A stretch of DNA of 64,000 bases from a virus (IMGVR_UViG_3300015370_001134:6521-70520); one strand, 5' to 3'. Shown: positions 28,113 to 40,543, counted from the first letter of the stretch. Notes: generated from the sequence alone by a model not told the origin. Numbers and translations are program-made.

Positions 28113-28955
28113 CTAACAATTATTTCTAAACAAAACACACCACTTGGCAACTGATGATAACTCTGATTCAGAACGAGACATTTTTCTTATATTCCGAGCA
28201 TGTTCTTTCATTTTTCCCATAGCTGCTGGATTGCCACCGTTTGAGCATCGTGATTTGCTTTTCAAAAACAAATCAATTTCCTGGCTAACCTTTTGCCAAA
28301 TTTTTTTCCGTTCTTCAGTTAACGCTTCATGTTCATTTAGCTTAAGTCTCTTTATAGATACTTCCACTCGTTGTTTATCCCATTCTGATATTTCATTATC
28401 AGGGACAATTATTGCATTGCCTTCCTCATTAAATGCAATCAGGGCTACATCATTTAGATCGGTTGGGTCCAATAAATAACATTCTTCAGATTCTTCACAC
28501 TGAAGATCGTAAGTAGAGCAATATGAAGTATCTTTAAGTGGAAACCATCCTCCCTTTTTTCTATTACCTACATTTCCACAAAGCCTAAAATTGCTATAAT
28601 CAAAGGCGAGCCACCAATAACCATCACGTTTAAAACCATTAATATCTATAGCCTCTTTTTTAGGACGAAAATGCTCCACATCATAATATGAATACAGTTC
28701 TCTTACTTCTGAAAACCAACATTTTCCCTTAGAGAGAGCCTGCAGCCAAGGCTTGAGTTTTCCCCAATGTGCACTTTTTGAATCAATAAAATCATTTCTT
28801 TCTTTTATATCACCCACTTCACTCAATTTTTCAAGTTCAGCAAGCAATTCAGCCGATTTTGCAAGCCATGCATTCCATTTTTCCTGAGACCAGGGTTTCC
28901 AGTTCGGAAGGTTATTATCAACCGGTGTTTTGCCTTCAAAATCAATATAAATCAC
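28113..28955 (-). CDS. HNH endonuclease, PtuB/retron-Ec78-HNH-like; C-terminus possibly clipped by the prophage
   Basis: GKCWFSE, DVEHFRPK, YWWLAFDYSNFRLCGNVGNRKK, YLLDP motifs; ATGA-coupled to the ATPase. Confidence 0.75.
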   Translation of the reverse strand: MIYIDFEGKTPVDNNLPNWKPWSQEKWNAWLAKSAELLAELEKLSEVGDIKERNDFIDSKSAHWGKLKPWLQALSKGKCWFSEVRELYSYYDVEHFRPKKEAIDINGFKRDGYWWLAFDYSNFRLCGNVGNRKKGGWFPLKDTSYCSTYDLQCEESEECYLLDPTDLNDVALIAFNEEGNAIIVPDNEISEWDKQRVEVSIKRLKLNEHEALTEERKKIWQKVSQEIDLFLKSKSRCSNGGNPAAMGKMKEHARNIRKMSRSESELSSVAKWCVLFRNNC

Positions 28956-30550
28956 TGATCTGTCTCCTTAAGAATTTCATCAATGATTCCATCGGCAATA
29001 GCATCCTGTTCTTCTTGCTCTTCAGGTGTAAGTTCTGGCTTGTGAAACTTTGTGTGGAGGGCCATCTTCTTTATGAATTTATCAAAATAAGGATCTTTAA
29101 AATCACTTGCAAAACCAAGGTCAGAGAGTTCATCACTTAGTCGAGTTAATTCTATATTATCAATTTCAGAACGGGCTTCACCCAAGGCATACAGATAATT
29201 TCGTCTATCAATGCGCCGCAATGTTTCCGTATCAACCGTTGATCGCAAACCGAACAGATCACTTTTAAGCAACCCAGAAACTCCCATACCTTGTGGATCT
29301 TCAATTGGCTCTTCAGCTCGAATTAACCCACCTTCTTTAATGAGAATACGTACTTGCTCCTTCCTCAAACTGCCAATCATCAAAGGATCGTGGGTGGTAA
29401 CCAGTATTTGTGATGAACTATCACCAATCACATTTTTTATTGCTTCAAAATATCGGAGCTTCCAGATTGGATTTAGGTGTGTGTCCGGCTCATCGAGTAA
29501 AAAAAGAGTTTCTTCCTCTTTGGTAAGACGCATAAGCCCAAGAACAGTTAACAACTGCTGCTCCCCTTCAGAGAGTTCACGAAATGAAATATCTCCTTGG
29601 GTATGCTTATGCTTGACCTTAATTCTTACCTCATCAATCAAATCCGATATATAGGTACTTTCCAAATACTTAAAAAAAGTTACTGGCGTTGGCTCAGGTG
29701 AATCCTTATCGTCAAAAGCATTGGCCAGACTATGGAGTTCCTTTTCATCCTGAAGAAAGAGGTAAAGAAGTTCAAATTTTTCTTTCCGATCACGAAAGTC
29801 AATCGTACGAGACTCTTCACTGTCAATTGGTGCAATTGCATAGTCCCAGAGTTTATCGAGGAAGTACCGCACTTTTCCACGAGCATACCAAAATCGGTTA
29901 TCTCCATTTTTAAGAATGGCTTCAGATGGATTGCTGCCAAACCAGTAGGGTCTTTTCAGCACGAAAAGAACCGATTCCAAATTAAGAATGCCCAGATCAG
30001 AAAGAATTTTTTTCACCTCTTCATCATTATCAATGAGATATGCCAGAAGAACAAACTGAGAGTGCACATTTCGACAGAGAAAGAGCCGACGTAATGGTAT
30101 GTCTTCATCACTCAGAAGATCATCATAGAATTTTTTTTGATGACGATGAAACAGCTCTTCTATTCGGTCATTTTTACCAGAATAGTATGCAAATACATTT
30201 TTAGGAAGAAAGCCATTCTCTTCTTTACTGATTGCTGTGGCTGAACTTTTCTTGCCATCTACTTTAACAAGTGGATTTTCGCTCTTTTCCGCTTCCACCT
30301 CAATTGTGTGACCACGCACCTCATATTCGAGTTTATAAGTGAACTCCGGCTTGTTTTTCAAATCCAAATCACGAAAAATCGTTATGATTGCTTCAAAGAG
30401 ATTTGATTTACCAGAACCGTTCTGACCAATAATTGCATGGCTGTTGAACTGCATAATATTACCAGCAGCATCGTTGCCTTCTGAGATAAAATCAATTTTG
30501 AAATCTTTGAGGTTCCGGAACTCTCCTATATGCAGTTTATTAATTCTCAT
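28952..30550 (-). CDS. ABC/AAA_21-type ATPase, PtuA-like
   Basis: Walker A GQNGSGKS, signature LSEGEQQ, Walker B LLDEPDTH, H-loop VTTHDP. Confidence 0.85.
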   Translation of the reverse strand: MRINKLHIGEFRNLKDFKIDFISEGNDAAGNIMQFNSHAIIGQNGSGKSNLFEAIITIFRDLDLKNKPEFTYKLEYEVRGHTIEVEAEKSENPLVKVDGKKSSATAISKEENGFLPKNVFAYYSGKNDRIEELFHRHQKKFYDDLLSDEDIPLRRLFLCRNVHSQFVLLAYLIDNDEEVKKILSDLGILNLESVLFVLKRPYWFGSNPSEAILKNGDNRFWYARGKVRYFLDKLWDYAIAPIDSEESRTIDFRDRKEKFELLYLFLQDEKELHSLANAFDDKDSPEPTPVTFFKYLESTYISDLIDEVRIKVKHKHTQGDISFRELSEGEQQLLTVLGLMRLTKEEETLFLLDEPDTHLNPIWKLRYFEAIKNVIGDSSSQILVTTHDPLMIGSLRKEQVRILIKEGGLIRAEEPIEDPQGMGVSGLLKSDLFGLRSTVDTETLRRIDRRNYLYALGEARSEIDNIELTRLSDELSDLGFASDFKDPYFDKFIKKMALHTKFHKPELTPEEQEEQDAIADGIIDEILKETDQ

Positions 30551-30561
30551 TATTCCTCGAT

Positions 30562-32496
30562 TTATGCCTCAACAATTCTGACTTCTGCCTTTTCTGGCTC
30601 TTCAATCCAGCTGTTAACCATTTCAATTTTAAGCTGATAATAAAATTCATCAATAGGCAAACCTGAATGGTTCCAAAGTGCTTTGGCCGAAAGTTCATCA
30701 TTATTTTGTGCCAAGATGGCGCTAAGGGGGGCATTGTCTTTAGTATCAGGCTTTTTCACCAGTTTGAGTTTGGTGATCAATTCGGTCTTTGGTGCTTTCA
30801 TTTTTTCTTGTTTCTCCATGGATATACCTGTGATACTCTCAACCATCGATTGAGCTAATAGTTTTGATATTTGTCGTGATTTCTTTATTTTTTTTTGCAA
30901 AATATCACAAATGGACAAGAGAGCCTGGATTTTTTCAACAATTTTTTTTTGTTCAATTAGCGGAGGAACTGGAACCATAAGACTCTCCGCATCACCAACT
31001 CTTAGATGTTTTACCATTGCACCAACGGCAACTTTCATCATTCTTTTAATAAAATTTGGGCTATAAATTGCGTAAATAAGGAAGTTCTTTTCAAATAAAT
31101 TGGGGAAAAGCCTTATTAGCATTGTGCGTTGTCCCAAACAGACAGTTGCTCCTTTAGGTACAATTGCAGCCTCTCCCATTGGCGCTTCTCTTGTAAAAAA
31201 AATATCCCCACTAATAGGAGGCATTCGCCTGGCCCAAAAATCATAGGTTTCTGTCGTAATTTTTTTTGTAAACTGTAAATTCATAAAGCCATTACGAATA
31301 TCCGATGTCCGTACCAGGTGAATACCAGAATCTACATATGGTGCTGTTTTATTATGGCAATCCACGACAGCTTTCGAAATTTGTAAAAATGATGCCCATA
31401 CCCAATGATCAGGTATTTTTACCTTAGGGTAATTTAGTTTCTGTTTTTTGAGCTTTTTCATCATTATTCGAGCTTCCTTAAGCTCTTGCCCTTCAGAATT
31501 AGCCTCCCATTCTTTTCTTGCGCTTTCAATTTGTCTTAATAAATCTTCCCCATTAAAGACTAATTTTTTATCTATAGGTATTAGATTTCCATTAAGGGCA
31601 ACGTCCTTAATAGCACTTTTCAACTCCTCCACATCCTCTGGGAGTTCAAGTAACCTCGGTATGTTTTCTTCCGCTCGTTTCCAGGCAGTAAACAGTTCAT
31701 TCCCTCCTTGAGCTTTAGCTAAAGCCTCCAGGGTTGAAGTACGAGCATTTTTTATGAGCACCGATCGTTTCTGTTGCTGCCCTTCAAGTTGATCACACAA
31801 AGCCATAAGTTGATCCACTTTGGCAACAATTCGTTTTTGCTCTTCAATTGGAGGCAACCCAACTTCCCCATTTAAAAGGGTTTTTGTATCAAGATGTGGA
31901 ATTGCAGCGCCCTTCATACTTGAATTAAGTTTTTGGAAACCTTGTTGAAATATCAATTTCACAAAAGGTTGAATAAATGGGGGCGTCTGAATGATTGCTA
32001 AAGTTGATCCTACTACACCAAATTTCCCCTGTAAAATTAGCCCGCTTCGAGAACCATCACAAACTACAAGAATATCTTCATCATGACATTTAAAGGCTTT
32101 TTCATCATTGGTAAATCTTCTTACGTTTCCTCTATCTAATGCTTCGATATCTTGATAAGGATACTTTTTTTTTGTTTCACTTAAATCTTTAGGATTTTTC
32201 CCTTTTAATAAACTGAAAAGGTCCATATTTTTTACTTGCACCCAATTCGGGGGCAAAGTCAAAAAAATTTTTGACTTTACACTAAGACTTCTGACTTTTT
32301 TTCCCCTTAGGCGCAATTGCTCCGAATTATACGCCTTCACTTCGTCAAGTAATTCCACTGCGGAACTATCCGTTGTCAATTGCTCTGTGAGTCTTCCTTT
32401 TAATCCGAGAAATAAAATCATCTCTCTCAGTCTTTGCACGCCACCAGGAGCATTAGCGATAACACTGAGCTCATCTAAAAATGTCTGAGGATTCAT
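30562..32496 (-). CDS. hsdS: Type I RM specificity subunit with an extra ~85-aa C-terminal domain
   Basis: Two TRDs with conserved LPPIEEQKRIVAKVDQL and VPPLIEQKKIVEKI spacers; 644 aa. Confidence 0.9.
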   Translation of the reverse strand: MNPQTFLDELSVIANAPGGVQRLREMILFLGLKGRLTEQLTTDSSAVELLDEVKAYNSEQLRLRGKKVRSLSVKSKIFLTLPPNWVQVKNMDLFSLLKGKNPKDLSETKKKYPYQDIEALDRGNVRRFTNDEKAFKCHDEDILVVCDGSRSGLILQGKFGVVGSTLAIIQTPPFIQPFVKLIFQQGFQKLNSSMKGAAIPHLDTKTLLNGEVGLPPIEEQKRIVAKVDQLMALCDQLEGQQQKRSVLIKNARTSTLEALAKAQGGNELFTAWKRAEENIPRLLELPEDVEELKSAIKDVALNGNLIPIDKKLVFNGEDLLRQIESARKEWEANSEGQELKEARIMMKKLKKQKLNYPKVKIPDHWVWASFLQISKAVVDCHNKTAPYVDSGIHLVRTSDIRNGFMNLQFTKKITTETYDFWARRMPPISGDIFFTREAPMGEAAIVPKGATVCLGQRTMLIRLFPNLFEKNFLIYAIYSPNFIKRMMKVAVGAMVKHLRVGDAESLMVPVPPLIEQKKIVEKIQALLSICDILQKKIKKSRQISKLLAQSMVESITGISMEKQEKMKAPKTELITKLKLVKKPDTKDNAPLSAILAQNNDELSAKALWNHSGLPIDEFYYQLKIEMVNSWIEEPEKAEVRIVEA

Positions 32497-36820: not shown

Positions 36821-39800
36821 CTACCCTGCCGGAGGTGTTTTTATAGCCTTACCATTTTTTACCTTCCGATGAAACACATCTAAATCCAAATCTGCAACAT
36901 TTATAGAAATTTGATCCACACCATGTGCGTGTGAAATAAGGCGTTCAAAAGATTCTTTATACGGAGCCTGCATAGTAGAGCCACCGTACTGACCTTTGTT
37001 GACCACAACGATGTGCTGGTACATATGATAATGGAGCGCACCAACCATGGCATCAAAAGTTCTGACATCCTTATTATGTGCTGGTATAACGAACAAATGA
37101 GACTTATTTTTCAAATCTGAAGCAAGTTTGAGATCTGTTGAGTCATAGCAAATGGCCCCTGTAATTTTCAAGGGATCTTTTGAAATCCCTTCCACCTCTA
37201 TTATGTGCTGGCAAGGGCGGAAAGAACTCACTCCCAACTCTTTTTCAACTAATGTTGGATGTGCCTTGCCTTGATCCCGGATCACCCATTGCCGACCTGA
37301 TTCTCGATAATCTGGTATTAACCATCGTGCTTTATTTACCAATTTCCCATCAGAATCTATGAAAATCATCCCGGCAAAAATCATTGAGCGTGTTTTATCG
37401 GCTAATCTTTTTAGTATATCTTGATCATCTGAATGTATCGCTACTTCTGGAAAAACTATCAAATCTGCAAAAGCTGGCCTTTTTTCTTTTTCAGTACCAG
37501 CTTTGCAAATCAATGTTTTATAAGTGAGACTACATATTTTTGCCAAATGATCCCGATTTCTCTCTTTAACCGGTGATGAACTTAAAGTAGGATCAGAGTC
37601 TGAAAAATCTTTGGTTTTTGGAAGCAGTTGTTGAACTGTAACCAATCTAAAGTGTGCATTATTTGATTTATTCGGTCTTTTTATTTTAGTTATGACAACC
37701 GGCATTTTGGATGCTTCACAATGAAAATCATTTAACAATGAAATTTGGTTTTCAATTACAATCCTACAACTTTCTAAATCATAAATAGTCTTTAATGAGT
37801 CCTCTCGAATGTGGGTGGATTCAAAACCTGGCCATTGAAGACAAATCATTAGAAATTCTGAAGCCCAGGTTGATAAAGTTGCATAATCACCAACAAGAGC
37901 CTCCGGTGCATGCATCATTCCCATTCGCCTCTTATACCAATTCGTCCGGAGCCCTTTGTAACCATTTATTTTACCACTTTTCCATCTATTGCCGGTATAA
38001 TCGTCTTTTCCTATGACAACCGCTCTTAATATTGAGCCAATCCAGTAGATAACATCTGCACCTGGTGTATCAGACAACCATGGCGGTGTGCTGAACCGTG
38101 GATCTTTCAAAATTTTGGCTGTATCTTTACTAACTTCAATTTGACAGCCGGGAACCCAGATTTCTTTCCAATCAGTAGCTAAACCTTTTCCCCCTGGTTT
38201 TGGTCTTACAAACAACTGTGATGGAGATAAGCCCAAGACATTTTGCTTTTCCTCATAAAGCGTCAATAATTCCAAAGATAATTTTAAAAACGCAGCCTCA
38301 TGAACAAACCCATTTGATTCCGAAAATATAAGTTGACTCAATCTTTGTTTTGCAAATCGAGAGACAGTTGAAGGTTTATAGGGGCGTGCCCATTCAAATT
38401 TCTTCGATATTTCGATAAAATCATCTGATTTATTGATTTGACTCCAAAAGAATCCCCAGAGATCGCCGCCTCTTTTAGCTAACTCATCGATAATTTTTGA
38501 AAGTTCTGTTTCATCAAACTCTTCTATAATTCCAAATAATTGCCGTGCAATAATTGAAGGAGTTCCACTAATTTGACCTGCAATTTCAAAGAGAGCCAAT
38601 TTTTGGCTTTTCCATTCTATTGGCTTACCCGCTAATATTTTATGCAACGTGTGCTGAATCGTTTCTTCAGAATCATCCAATGGAACAGACTTTTCCAATA
38701 CGGCAAGCAGGAGCAGTGCTTGTCTTTGAACAAAAATTGGTAGTTTGCTCGATGATATGGCCTTTTGGGCATAATGTCCTGCAATACCTAACATTCCTGA
38801 TGGATCGGCACTATCAGGATACTGAATTCTTTCATAATAGCTTTTGAATTCGATGCAGAAACGAAAAATATCGGCCAAGACATAATCAGATAAACAGCTA
38901 TTTATCTGATCAATATCTTTGCGATTTTTTCCGCTAAAACTACATCTTTCATATAGAGATTTTAAAACTGGCTCTAAGAGTTGAGGTGTGGGATATATTT
39001 CAAAAGCTTTTCTTAAAACTAAAGACAAAGAGGGATCTTGTATCCAAGACCAGATTAATTTTTTAGCAAGCAATTCACTCTCATTATCAATAGATCCCAT
39101 GGATTTTTCATTATTCGGATCTTCTCTTTCCCCAAGACGTCTTTTATTTCTCATTAGAATTTCAAGTCTATTCGCAGCGAATCTTTTCAATGTATCTGGT
39201 CTAACATCATGATCGAATTTGGCCACTCTTAAAAGAGGTGCGTCGGAAAGAGAGTCCAAATCAGAAGGCAATCCATCTGTTTGAGTTGTTAATAGACCTT
39301 CTAATATGCTTATTGCTCCGTCTAAAGTATCCCTGTCAACCGGTCCACTAATTTCCTTTTGCAGTTGATTAATTCTACCTGACAGGCTACCGCTACTATC
39401 CAAATCAACCAGTGATATTATTTGAGTTTTATCATTGTTTAATGAAAGCTCTTGTCCCCCTCTTTTTTTTAATTCTTGATTGATCCAGTTATTAATATTT
39501 TTTGTTACTTGCTCTATTGAACTTGCTTCATTCGTACTGATCACTAATCTCAAATCATCCACATAGCGGCAATAGTCATGTAAAACAACTCCTTCAAGTT
39601 GAGGTAAATTGTTTCCAATTTTTGAACCAACGAACTCGTCAAAATTAATCAAATATGAATTTGCCAAAAAACCTGCTGCAACAAGCCCTTGTGGGAGTCC
39701 TTTTCCTAAATTAATGCCTATTCTTTTGGCTTTGACTTTGGCTGTTTTATTCCAGTTCCAATTTGTAATATTCTGAATTGACTGCCAAAATTGCTCACAA

Positions 39801-40543
39801 TCTGTAGCAACATCAAGGTTATCACAGATTTCTTTCAACCTTTCCACCATTATGGATCGATCAATGCAGTTATAAAACTGGGCGATATCAAGACTAATTA
39901 TATATATATGATCTTTAGTCTCATGGCTCTCTGCTGCGTAATTGCCGAAAAAGACTGGACGTTTCAAAAAATATCTGTAATCAGTAAAGAACTTCCTATA
40001 CGTTTGATAGTTCCCCCAACGGAACCATGCCTCATCATCTTCCCAATCGCAAACCAATCTATTTCCATAGCTGTACACGCCCTTGTCTTGGGCCTTTAAA
40101 AAATCTTGCTCACCACAATTCCCCTGAACTGTTTCGACTGAATCTGCAAGACATAACATTGCAGCCGTTGTCAAAGTCTGGTCTCTAATTGTCAAATGTG
40201 CTAGTGGTCGGATTGGTGGTTTGTCTTTTTTAATACTATTTTTATCTTTTTGCTCTCGAATCCAACCTTCCTTTTGATCAACTATCCATCTTTGGCTTTT
40301 GGGAGCCGGGACCAACTCCATTTTATAAGGAATAAAATCAGATTGAGATACCATTTTACCCCAATTAGAAGCATTTGACTCCAACCCAAGAGCTGAAATA
40401 TCTAAGGCCAATGTATCAGCATACCAGTTGTGCGATCTCATATATGCATGAGTTTTTTTCCACGCCTGAGCAATGACAACTTCATCAGTCAAATATTCTA
40501 TTCTGGGTCTTAAGTTTCGATACTTAGGATCAATTAAGCGCAT
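36821..40543 (-). CDS. Reverse transcriptase fused to a C-terminal nitrilase domain (DRT type 1 / UG1-like)
   Basis: RT motifs LPQGLVAAGFLAN and YCRYVDDLRL; nitrilase triad FPEV (E), QGKAHP (K), AICYD (C); 1240 aa. Confidence 0.85.
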   Translation of the reverse strand: MRLIDPKYRNLRPRIEYLTDEVVIAQAWKKTHAYMRSHNWYADTLALDISALGLESNASNWGKMVSQSDFIPYKMELVPAPKSQRWIVDQKEGWIREQKDKNSIKKDKPPIRPLAHLTIRDQTLTTAAMLCLADSVETVQGNCGEQDFLKAQDKGVYSYGNRLVCDWEDDEAWFRWGNYQTYRKFFTDYRYFLKRPVFFGNYAAESHETKDHIYIISLDIAQFYNCIDRSIMVERLKEICDNLDVATDCEQFWQSIQNITNWNWNKTAKVKAKRIGINLGKGLPQGLVAAGFLANSYLINFDEFVGSKIGNNLPQLEGVVLHDYCRYVDDLRLVISTNEASSIEQVTKNINNWINQELKKRGGQELSLNNDKTQIISLVDLDSSGSLSGRINQLQKEISGPVDRDTLDGAISILEGLLTTQTDGLPSDLDSLSDAPLLRVAKFDHDVRPDTLKRFAANRLEILMRNKRRLGEREDPNNEKSMGSIDNESELLAKKLIWSWIQDPSLSLVLRKAFEIYPTPQLLEPVLKSLYERCSFSGKNRKDIDQINSCLSDYVLADIFRFCIEFKSYYERIQYPDSADPSGMLGIAGHYAQKAISSSKLPIFVQRQALLLLAVLEKSVPLDDSEETIQHTLHKILAGKPIEWKSQKLALFEIAGQISGTPSIIARQLFGIIEEFDETELSKIIDELAKRGGDLWGFFWSQINKSDDFIEISKKFEWARPYKPSTVSRFAKQRLSQLIFSESNGFVHEAAFLKLSLELLTLYEEKQNVLGLSPSQLFVRPKPGGKGLATDWKEIWVPGCQIEVSKDTAKILKDPRFSTPPWLSDTPGADVIYWIGSILRAVVIGKDDYTGNRWKSGKINGYKGLRTNWYKRRMGMMHAPEALVGDYATLSTWASEFLMICLQWPGFESTHIREDSLKTIYDLESCRIVIENQISLLNDFHCEASKMPVVITKIKRPNKSNNAHFRLVTVQQLLPKTKDFSDSDPTLSSSPVKERNRDHLAKICSLTYKTLICKAGTEKEKRPAFADLIVFPEVAIHSDDQDILKRLADKTRSMIFAGMIFIDSDGKLVNKARWLIPDYRESGRQWVIRDQGKAHPTLVEKELGVSSFRPCQHIIEVEGISKDPLKITGAICYDSTDLKLASDLKNKSHLFVIPAHNKDVRTFDAMVGALHYHMYQHIVVVNKGQYGGSTMQAPYKESFERLISHAHGVDQISINVADLDLDVFHRKVKNGKAIKTPPAG

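Follow-up and report, generated by a model that had tools for sequence, protein, structure and literature searches.

How separate bacterial defences are wired to one another is an open question, and few cases are known: PrrC with EcoprrI, PARIS with Ocr and retrons with PtuAB. PrrC is encoded right after hsdS, is masked by EcoprrI, a type Ic restriction–modification (RM) enzyme, and is unleashed by a phage anti-restriction peptide; to our knowledge, no special HsdS domain for PrrC has been described. PARIS (AriA/AriB) senses the anti-restriction protein Ocr. Septu, composed of PtuA and PtuB, was reportedly described by Doron in 2018, and the E. coli Septu structures are 8EE4 and 8EEA. Here we analyse a 64,000-nucleotide (nt) stretch of viral DNA (IMGVR_UViG_3300015370_001134:6521-70520; the window), in which a type I RM operon is followed by genes for a Septu-type ATPase, PtuA, and an HNH nuclease, PtuB, and in which the specificity subunit, HsdS, carries an additional C-terminal domain (the tail). 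There is a near-obligate, two-way association of this tail with one PtuA clade across phyla and RM backbones, and the tail is predicted to dock onto PtuA. The locus is a new, RM-coupled version of Septu, in which the tail-bearing RM enzyme and PtuAB probably work as one machine.

Comparison with described systems

Retron PtuA has gained lineage-specific elements for the retron to hold or sequester PtuAB (PMC12819146), and characterised Septu and retron PtuAB cut tRNA-Tyr, according to the abstracts of PMC13096335 and PMC12673091. Defence genes embedded in type I RM, BREX and Hma loci are reported by Payne et al. 2024 (10.1101/2024.01.29.577857), and Septu embedded in Hma by Payne 2021. The locus described here resembles those in that genes of the Septu type lie within a methylase-based system or are attached to it; both papers, however, describe gene neighbourhood only, and the passages searched mention no dedicated HsdS domain or predicted physical link. 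Our literature search, the coverage of which excludes most subscription journals, found no description of an HsdS adaptor domain or of its pairing with PtuA.

As in Septu, an ABC ATPase gene is followed by a translationally coupled HNH nuclease gene, and the PADLOC models for both proteins match over their full length: PDLC00293 for PtuA (637 bits, residues 1–531; profile of 527 positions) and PDLC00343 for PtuB (324 bits). This agrees with an earlier interpretation of the window made without database searches (the sequence-only reading), which had called the pair PtuAB-like. The Walker A, signature, Walker B and H-loop motifs of PtuA are intact (GQNGSGKS, LSEGE, LLDEPD and TTHDP, respectively), and its AlphaFold2 model, with a pLDDT (predicted local distance difference test) score of 80, is closest to the solved PtuAs of retrons Ec83 and Eco7 and of E. 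coli Septu (Z 17–19), ahead of Rad50, AriA and OLD. PtuB has the HNH core DVEHFRPK...NFRLCGNVGNRKKG and matches no Pfam family. In sequence, however, the window's PtuA is very distant from the solved PtuAs, the closest aligning at E 2e-4 over about 75 residues, and unlike Septu it has a clade-specific insert surface. A self-contained, two-gene type I Septu was rejected as a description, since, unlike stand-alone type I Septu, this PtuA clade is almost always preceded by a tail-bearing HsdS (70 of 71 metagenome loci and 8 of 8 genomes; see below).

The locus is also like retron-Septu (Ec78/Eco7 and Ec83; 'Septu type II' in PADLOC) in that PtuAB appears co-opted by a separate sensor module, but the partner here is a protein domain of HsdS rather than a reverse transcriptase with its multicopy single-stranded DNA (msDNA). 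The retron equivalogs were rejected (NF041760 and NF041761: 35 bits against 500 for PtuA and 51 against 150 for PtuB). With PrrC–EcoprrI it shares an ABC-ATPase-based nuclease whose gene comes immediately after hsdS within the operon of a type I RM system. PrrC, however, is a single polypeptide with an anticodon-nuclease domain, whereas the effector here is split into PtuA and the HNH protein PtuB, and the predicted docking element is a conserved HsdS domain. A PrrC-type anticodon nuclease was rejected because of this split, and no PrrC model is among the top PADLOC or Pfam matches. In PARIS, AriA is likewise a fold-related ABC ATPase controlling a nuclease (Z ~15; PDB 8V45 is among the matches of PtuA), but PARIS stands alone, uses a Toprim nuclease as effector and is not tethered to an RM subunit. 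Membership of PARIS was rejected, the PADLOC AriA model scoring about 69 bits against 637 for PtuA.

The HsdS tail is a discrete, conserved domain

The HsdS extension is 89 residues in length (residues 556–644) and consists of a linker of about 20 residues and a folded domain of about 65. The sequence-only reading had noted a continuation of about 85 residues past the second conserved helix of HsdS and had judged it foreign to canonical HsdS, and both points stand. The Pfam Methylase_S match and the tail-less relatives both end at about residue 555, the segment beginning MEKQEKMKAPK... starts at residue 560 (nt 30819), and Pfam holds no model matching the tail. The tail as a general trait of long type IB HsdS proteins was rejected: 43 related HsdS encoded in full hsdR-hsdM-hsdS (R-M-S) operons stop near residue 555.

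A word-based search with residues 556–644 retrieved 19 tail-bearing HsdS proteins (49–85% identity). In whole-protein HsdS alignments the tail is the best-conserved part and the target-recognition domains are variable; in an alignment of 28 tails the mean column identity is 70%, above that of the HsdS core, and K12, P14, L18, A34, L36, L52, F63, Y64, Q66, E70 and W75 (tail numbering) are invariant. Because it is the most conserved part of HsdS, the tail is not a chance feature, and the alignments indicate strong purifying selection. When a tail profile was run against 1.84 billion representative proteins, 295 matches were obtained, and the best 150 of these all lie at the extreme C terminus of HsdS proteins of about 610–690 residues or of fragments; the short matches are taken as fragments since their starts fall inside the last HsdS helix. 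The tail as a stand-alone small protein, or as a domain of other families, was rejected on the same 150 matches.

AlphaFold2 predicts a disordered linker (tail residues 1–16) followed by a strand-helix-strand-helix-helix core with a pLDDT of about 86. Foldseek found no match to the tail in the PDB at E ≤ 0.001. In an exhaustive structure comparison (VIA-align) the matches are almost all winged-helix domains, at a modest Z of 4.6–6.6, which is within the range seen for common arrangements; they include domains that make protein–protein contacts (RPA32C, the cullin WHB domain and Stn1). The sequence-only reading had called the tail winged helix-turn-helix-like; a winged-helix-like fold is indeed plausible from the predicted model but weakly so, given these Z values. 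Of 90 tails, 82% have a net acidic core, which disfavours DNA binding.

Two loci (L114:1467-1892 and L120:2479-2907; L numbers denote loci) have a second, partial tail copy in tandem before ptuA (24 bits, E ~5e-5), which could form two docking sites. In another protein (P0163, 731 residues), HsdS with its tail runs into a C-terminal HNH domain of about 90 residues (…CAACG…HIIPW…CLCANCH…).

Tail and PtuA occur together, whichever is chosen first

Association was assessed in both directions. In the forward sample, 80 loci of HsdS relatives, one genome per species, were scored by tblastn and hidden Markov model (HMM), with at least 40% identity to the window's PtuA as the criterion. PtuA and PtuB lie directly downstream in 24 of the 26 tail-bearing loci, whereas none of the 43 evaluable tail-less loci has a PtuA at that threshold. 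The tail-bearing loci belong to Gammaproteobacteria, Betaproteobacteria, Desulfobacterota, Acidobacteriota, Nitrospirota and Planctomycetota. Both exceptions, L022 and L023, keep a full tail without ptuAB, and their downstream slot is occupied by Hachiman or by a small zeta-like AAA gene. Four further loci of the window's RM clade (L039, L045, L054 and L075) have only a stub of the tail (…EQEE.PVKAPQT…), which then breaks off and is followed by OLD, PDC-S02/DUF1016 nuclease or unrelated genes. In these four loci, where other genes replace ptuAB, the tail and ptuAB were therefore lost together. The same RM clade also occurs as complete R-M-S operons with neither tail nor PtuAB.

In the reverse direction, loci were chosen by PtuA. 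Among 401 genomes of the window's class, searched for PtuA of at least 43% identity, all eight other genomes with this PtuA carry the tail just upstream. On two of the eight it sits on a quite different HsdS (450 and 587 residues). In L094, where an insertion sequence has removed the rest of hsdS, ptuA is still adjoined by an 86-residue remnant of the tail; L097 has a frameshift in the tail and an inserted RRXRR-HNH gene. Metagenomes contain at least 515 PtuA relatives. Among 80 metagenome loci that gave a PtuA alignment, the upstream sequence is 250 nt or longer in 71, and in 70 of these 71 the tail is on the gene just upstream; the sole miss is L179, in which HsdS ends right after its last helix. 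All sampled PtuAs have at least 42% identity to that of the window. The first-round tail HMM missed 16 tails of clade 2, the most divergent, and a second-iteration HMM built without those 16 recovered 16 of 16 (E 1e-7 to 5e-16). In this divergent group (PtuA identity 42–46%) the tail takes the form RPL.EVL....LTPEELF..AGF....VD.FYEELR.EV..G.I.E.RP, HsdS has 510–680 residues and HsdM is only 26–34% identical to that of the window. The association predicted from the sequence-only reading's docking proposal is thus present from both sides.

The link between tail and PtuA spans at least three HsdS/RM backbones and three gene orders: R-M-S-ptuA-ptuB, R-S-ptuA-ptuB-M, and S-ptuA-ptuB-M without hsdR in the flanks. 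As locus counts are not independent, more weight falls on this recurrence across several RM backbones. The hsdS stop codon lies between −26 and +37 nt from the ptuA start in 99 of 105 loci, with 46 overlaps; the remaining six have one gene inserted between hsdS and ptuA. Judged from the sequences, this is the spacing of translationally coupled genes. The wiring is visible in sequence, in that a portable HsdS adaptor of about 65 residues predicts one PtuA clade almost perfectly, over at least five phyla and several RM families. RM-coupled Septu, at present reported by annotation tools as two unrelated systems, can be recognised in genomes simply by the tail.

It is very improbable that these are two independent systems that happen to be neighbours in a defence island, with the HsdS extension a functionless quirk of the lineage. 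Type I RM loci do often hold unrelated embedded defence genes (Payne et al., bioRxiv 10.1101/2024.01.29.577857), sister loci hold OLD, PDC-S02 or Hachiman genes at the same position, and the window itself is a low-GC island crowded with defence genes. Mere neighbourhood nevertheless fits the data poorly, given an association of 70/71 and 24/26 against 0/43, the spacing as in translationally coupled genes, the conservation of the tail above that of the HsdS core and a complex prediction that passes, as described next.

The tail is predicted to dock onto an insert in PtuA

Two types of PtuB occur beside the same tail and PtuA, with 59–64% or 28–35% identity to that of the window (for example L037). 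Because PtuB swaps between these types beside the same tail and PtuA, the constant partner of the tail is PtuA, and PtuB was rejected as the tail partner on this ground.

Complex prediction was run with our own alignments (27 rows for PtuA and 28 for the tail), for which the calibration holds only roughly. The interface score ipSAE was 0.77, a mark reached by 58 of 80 solved complexes and by 2 of 110 mismatched pairs; the highest of three control scores was 0.00. Runs agreed in at least 78% of contacts, with a partner pLDDT of at least 81. No solved complex similar to tail–PtuA was found and, because the closest solved PtuA aligns so distantly and over so short a segment, the prediction is unlikely to be a memory of a solved complex. 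The tail is predicted to make contacts through a conserved strand (residues 10–22) and helices (residues 49–71), and PtuA through residues 193–268 and 309–311, which sit in an α/β insert (residues 188–315) between the Walker A and signature motifs. On the tail side the predicted interface contains the invariant residues K12, P14, L18, L52/W53, F63, Y64, Q66 and E70, and on the PtuA side the residues are likewise conserved. The PtuA contact motifs LESVLFVLK.P, GD.RFWYARG and LW..APi are kept in every tail-linked PtuA, and are replaced, with a four-residue deletion, in the PtuA-like ATPases that follow tail-less HsdS.

Covariation between the two proteins (mutual information with average product correction, 82 non-redundant tail/PtuA pairs) shows a weak enrichment of interface pairs, about 2.5-fold, and the pair tail 60–PtuA 242, a predicted contact, is within the top ten. 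Taken with the two-way association, the model makes it likely that the tail and PtuA bind physically, and docking of PtuAB by the tail, as the sequence-only reading had proposed, is well supported by the sequence comparisons and by the modelled complex. The predicted interface is a concrete target for mutation.

An improbable alternative is that the tail has a role in the RM enzyme or in regulating it, for example as a winged-helix element that binds an operator or helps assembly, and simply travels with ptuAB in a mobile five-gene cassette. Winged-helix folds often bind DNA, clade 1 is a single horizontally spread cassette in which co-inheritance alone gives high co-occurrence, and L022 and L023 keep a full tail without ptuAB. 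Such a tail would not, however, be expected on three or more HsdS/RM backbones and in three gene orders, always right before the same PtuA clade, while 43 tail-less loci of the same RM clade do without it. Its core is acidic in 82% of cases, its invariant residues map to the predicted PtuA interface, and the matching PtuA surface is specific to the tail-linked clade. An account without docking therefore also fits the data poorly.

Proposed mechanism

We infer that the RM or methyltransferase complex controls PtuAB. A complete type IB-like HsdR/HsdM/HsdS enzyme would bear an acidic, winged-helix-like adaptor on a flexible linker at the HsdS C terminus; the adaptor would grip the PtuA α/β insert (residues 188–315), and PtuA would carry the HNH nuclease PtuB. 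The tether may hold PtuAB latent on the methyltransferase/restriction complex until a changed state of the complex, most likely brought about when phage anti-restriction factors inhibit or occupy it, frees PtuAB or switches it on. Activated PtuAB would then cut host or phage nucleic acid as a back-up. By analogy, PrrC on EcoprrI, PARIS sensing Ocr and the sequestration of PtuAB by retrons provide precedents for the guard step, which the sequence-only reading had also suggested, as an abortive back-up. We put forward this composite system, an RM-coupled Septu with PtuAB latent on the RM enzyme and a guard logic, as a tentative reading that may well be wrong in its details of control.

A second way of using the same tether is possible but doubtful: the methyltransferase core, M2S1, would find unmethylated sites, at which tethered PtuAB would provide a second module for restriction. 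Where a cassette has no hsdR, PtuAB would be the sole restriction module, its Rad50-like ATPase and HNH nuclease replacing HsdR. The evidence for docking applies equally to this possibility, which also agrees with the hsdS(tail)-ptuA-ptuB-hsdM cassettes lacking hsdR in the sequenced flanks (L146, L176 and probably L160), with the HsdS–tail–HNH fusion of P0163 and with the way in which the target-recognition domains diversify (HsdS core identity 25–45%) while the tail and PtuA remain at 50–70%, as expected if recognition matters. However, a full hsdR is retained in the majority of loci (every clade-1 locus and, of the 16 clade-2 loci whose flanks are long enough, about 13), complete R-M-S operons of the same RM clade work with neither tail nor PtuAB, and characterised Septu and retron PtuAB hit tRNA-Tyr and are abortive, according to the abstracts of PMC13096335 and PMC12673091. 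In the genomes of the seemingly hsdR-less cassettes, hsdR could also sit elsewhere. We slightly favour latent PtuAB guarding the RM complex over PtuAB recruited as a restriction nuclease.

Several points weigh against the composite guard system. In L146, L176 and probably L160 the S(tail)-ptuA-ptuB-hsdM cassettes have no hsdR in flanks of 3–6 kb, and hence there is no restriction activity nearby to guard; such cassettes, which the guard hypothesis does not predict, fit a recruited nuclease equally well. In L179 (tail deleted) and L097 (tail frameshifted), ptuAB genes that look intact have no intact tail beside them, which disfavours a strict toxin–antitoxin role for the tail. PtuA-like ATPases with 25–31% identity directly follow tail-less HsdS in L014, L070, L074, L062 and L099; as seen in the first three, genomic linkage of hsdS and an ATPase gene can exist without the tail. 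Many loci share descent, so that the counts given above are not independent trials and overstate independence. Finally, binding of the tail to PtuA is itself a prediction, and covariation places only 7 interface pairs in the top 200, against 2.9 expected.

More far-reaching, and in our view rather unlikely, is the proposal that the M2S1 core acts as a sensor for PtuAB, that these loci constitute a third Septu class and that PtuAB has replaced HsdR in the hsdR-less cassettes. If these cassettes do restrict DNA, they represent a new restriction-enzyme architecture, and if PtuAB has replaced HsdR, a new kind of RM enzyme with a Rad50-like cutting module instead of a helicase–nuclease. The loci are a tractable setting in which to ask if RM complexes serve as guardees or decoys of anti-restriction proteins or instead recruit a second nuclease.

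Variation at the 3′ end of hsdS

The slot following hsdS is filled differently in sister RM loci: by an OLD-family nuclease gene overlapping the hsdS stop codon (L054:11791-13512), a PDC-S02/DUF1016 nuclease (L075:11996-13006), a convergent Hachiman HamB (L022:12088-14247) or a DRT1-like reverse transcriptase–nitrilase (L081:11679-13457). Defence-gene swapping has a hotspot at the 3′ end of hsdS. Small zeta-toxin/AAA_33-like genes encoding 119–190 residues lie between the HsdS tail and ptuA in L098 (L098:5185-5757) and directly after the tail, with ptuAB absent, in L023 (L023:2630-2989). A gap of 773 nt occupies the position between the hsdS tail and ptuA in both L107 and L108. Among the cassettes without hsdR, that of L146 is flanked by queA/oxidoreductase housekeeping genes and unrelated genes, and that of L176 adjoins an archaeal-type S-layer gene.

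The best NCBIfam match of the window's PtuA is TIGR04435, the 'restriction system-associated AAA family ATPase', a related ABC ATPase family to which NCBI gave this name because it adjoins restriction genes. Membership was rejected (139 bits for the window's PtuA and 92–143 for five relatives, against a cut-off of 300). When 401 genomes were searched for members of TIGR04435, one locus, L181, was found. There, a true TIGR04435 ATPase (L181:7995-9557, genome G802; 402 bits) overlaps the end of a 520-residue HsdS, whose C-terminal extension, about 100 residues long, is a different one and goes unmatched by the tail HMM; both hsdR and hsdM look broken up in this locus. Further ATPase families may be paired with HsdS tails of other kinds.

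Gene organisation in the window

The features described by the sequence-only reading are all present where it placed them, all on the minus strand (Table 1). HsdR, HsdM and HsdS form a type I RM system of the EcoAI (IB) family, encoded in one operon in which genes abut or overlap. HsdR matches NCBIfam NF046051, the EcoAI/FtnUII family, with 1103 bits (cut-off 550) and has the Pfam domains ResIII and EcoEI_R_C; HsdM matches Pfam N6_Mtase (231 bits) and HsdM_N, and PADLOC MTase_I (927 bits). HsdS has two Pfam Methylase_S matches, and PADLOC Specificity_I (PDLC03096) spans its residues 1–640. The hsdS stop codon, TAA, is at 30562-30564 and exactly 11 nt separate it from the ATG of ptuA, as the sequence-only reading had counted. 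Its description of the ptuA/ptuB junction was right in the coupling, a 4-nt overlap, and wrong in the letters, which read GTGA rather than ATGA. The GTG start of ptuB is supported, as homologues align from residue 1.

Table 1 Features of the RM-coupled Septu locus; coordinates of open reading frames and other features are positions within the 64,000-nt window.
Feature	Coordinates	Strand	Basis
hsdR, EcoAI/type IB-family restriction subunit, 823 residues	34305..36776	-	NF046051 and Pfam
hsdM, N6-adenine methyltransferase subunit, 591 residues	32496..34271	-	Pfam, PADLOC
hsdS, whole, 644 residues	30562..32496	-	Open reading frame
hsdS core, residues 1–555, two target-recognition domains and conserved helices	30832..32496	-	Pfam, PADLOC
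HsdS C-terminal linker and adaptor domain, residues 556–644, predicted PtuA binder	30565..30831	-	
hsdS–ptuA spacer, 11 nt, GAGGA ribosome-binding site	30551..30561	-	Sequence read directly
ptuA, Septu-type ABC ATPase, 532 residues	28952..30550	-	PADLOC PDLC00293
PtuA α/β insert, residues 188–315, predicted tail-docking surface	29606..29989	-	
ptuB, HNH nuclease, 280 residues, GTG start	28113..28955	-	PADLOC PDLC00343
DRT1a-type reverse transcriptase–nitrilase, 1240 residues (context only)	36821..40543	-	PADLOC Drt1a, 1395 bits

The DRT1a-type gene precedes hsdR on the same strand, 44 nt upstream. It was rejected as a member of the cassette: tblastn detected no DRT1 match in roughly 110 related tail/PtuA loci, and the gene is thus a local addition to the island. 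The GC content of the window is about 50% before ~24 kb and about 38% from there to its end, and the low-GC stretch (~24000-64000) points to the acquisition of a large island with many defence genes. The HsdM of the window's RM clade aligns over residues 1–590 only with HsdM from tail-bearing loci, and alignments with the HsdM of tail-less relatives stop at about residue 451–497; the C-terminal 100–140 residues of HsdM are therefore also clade-specific.

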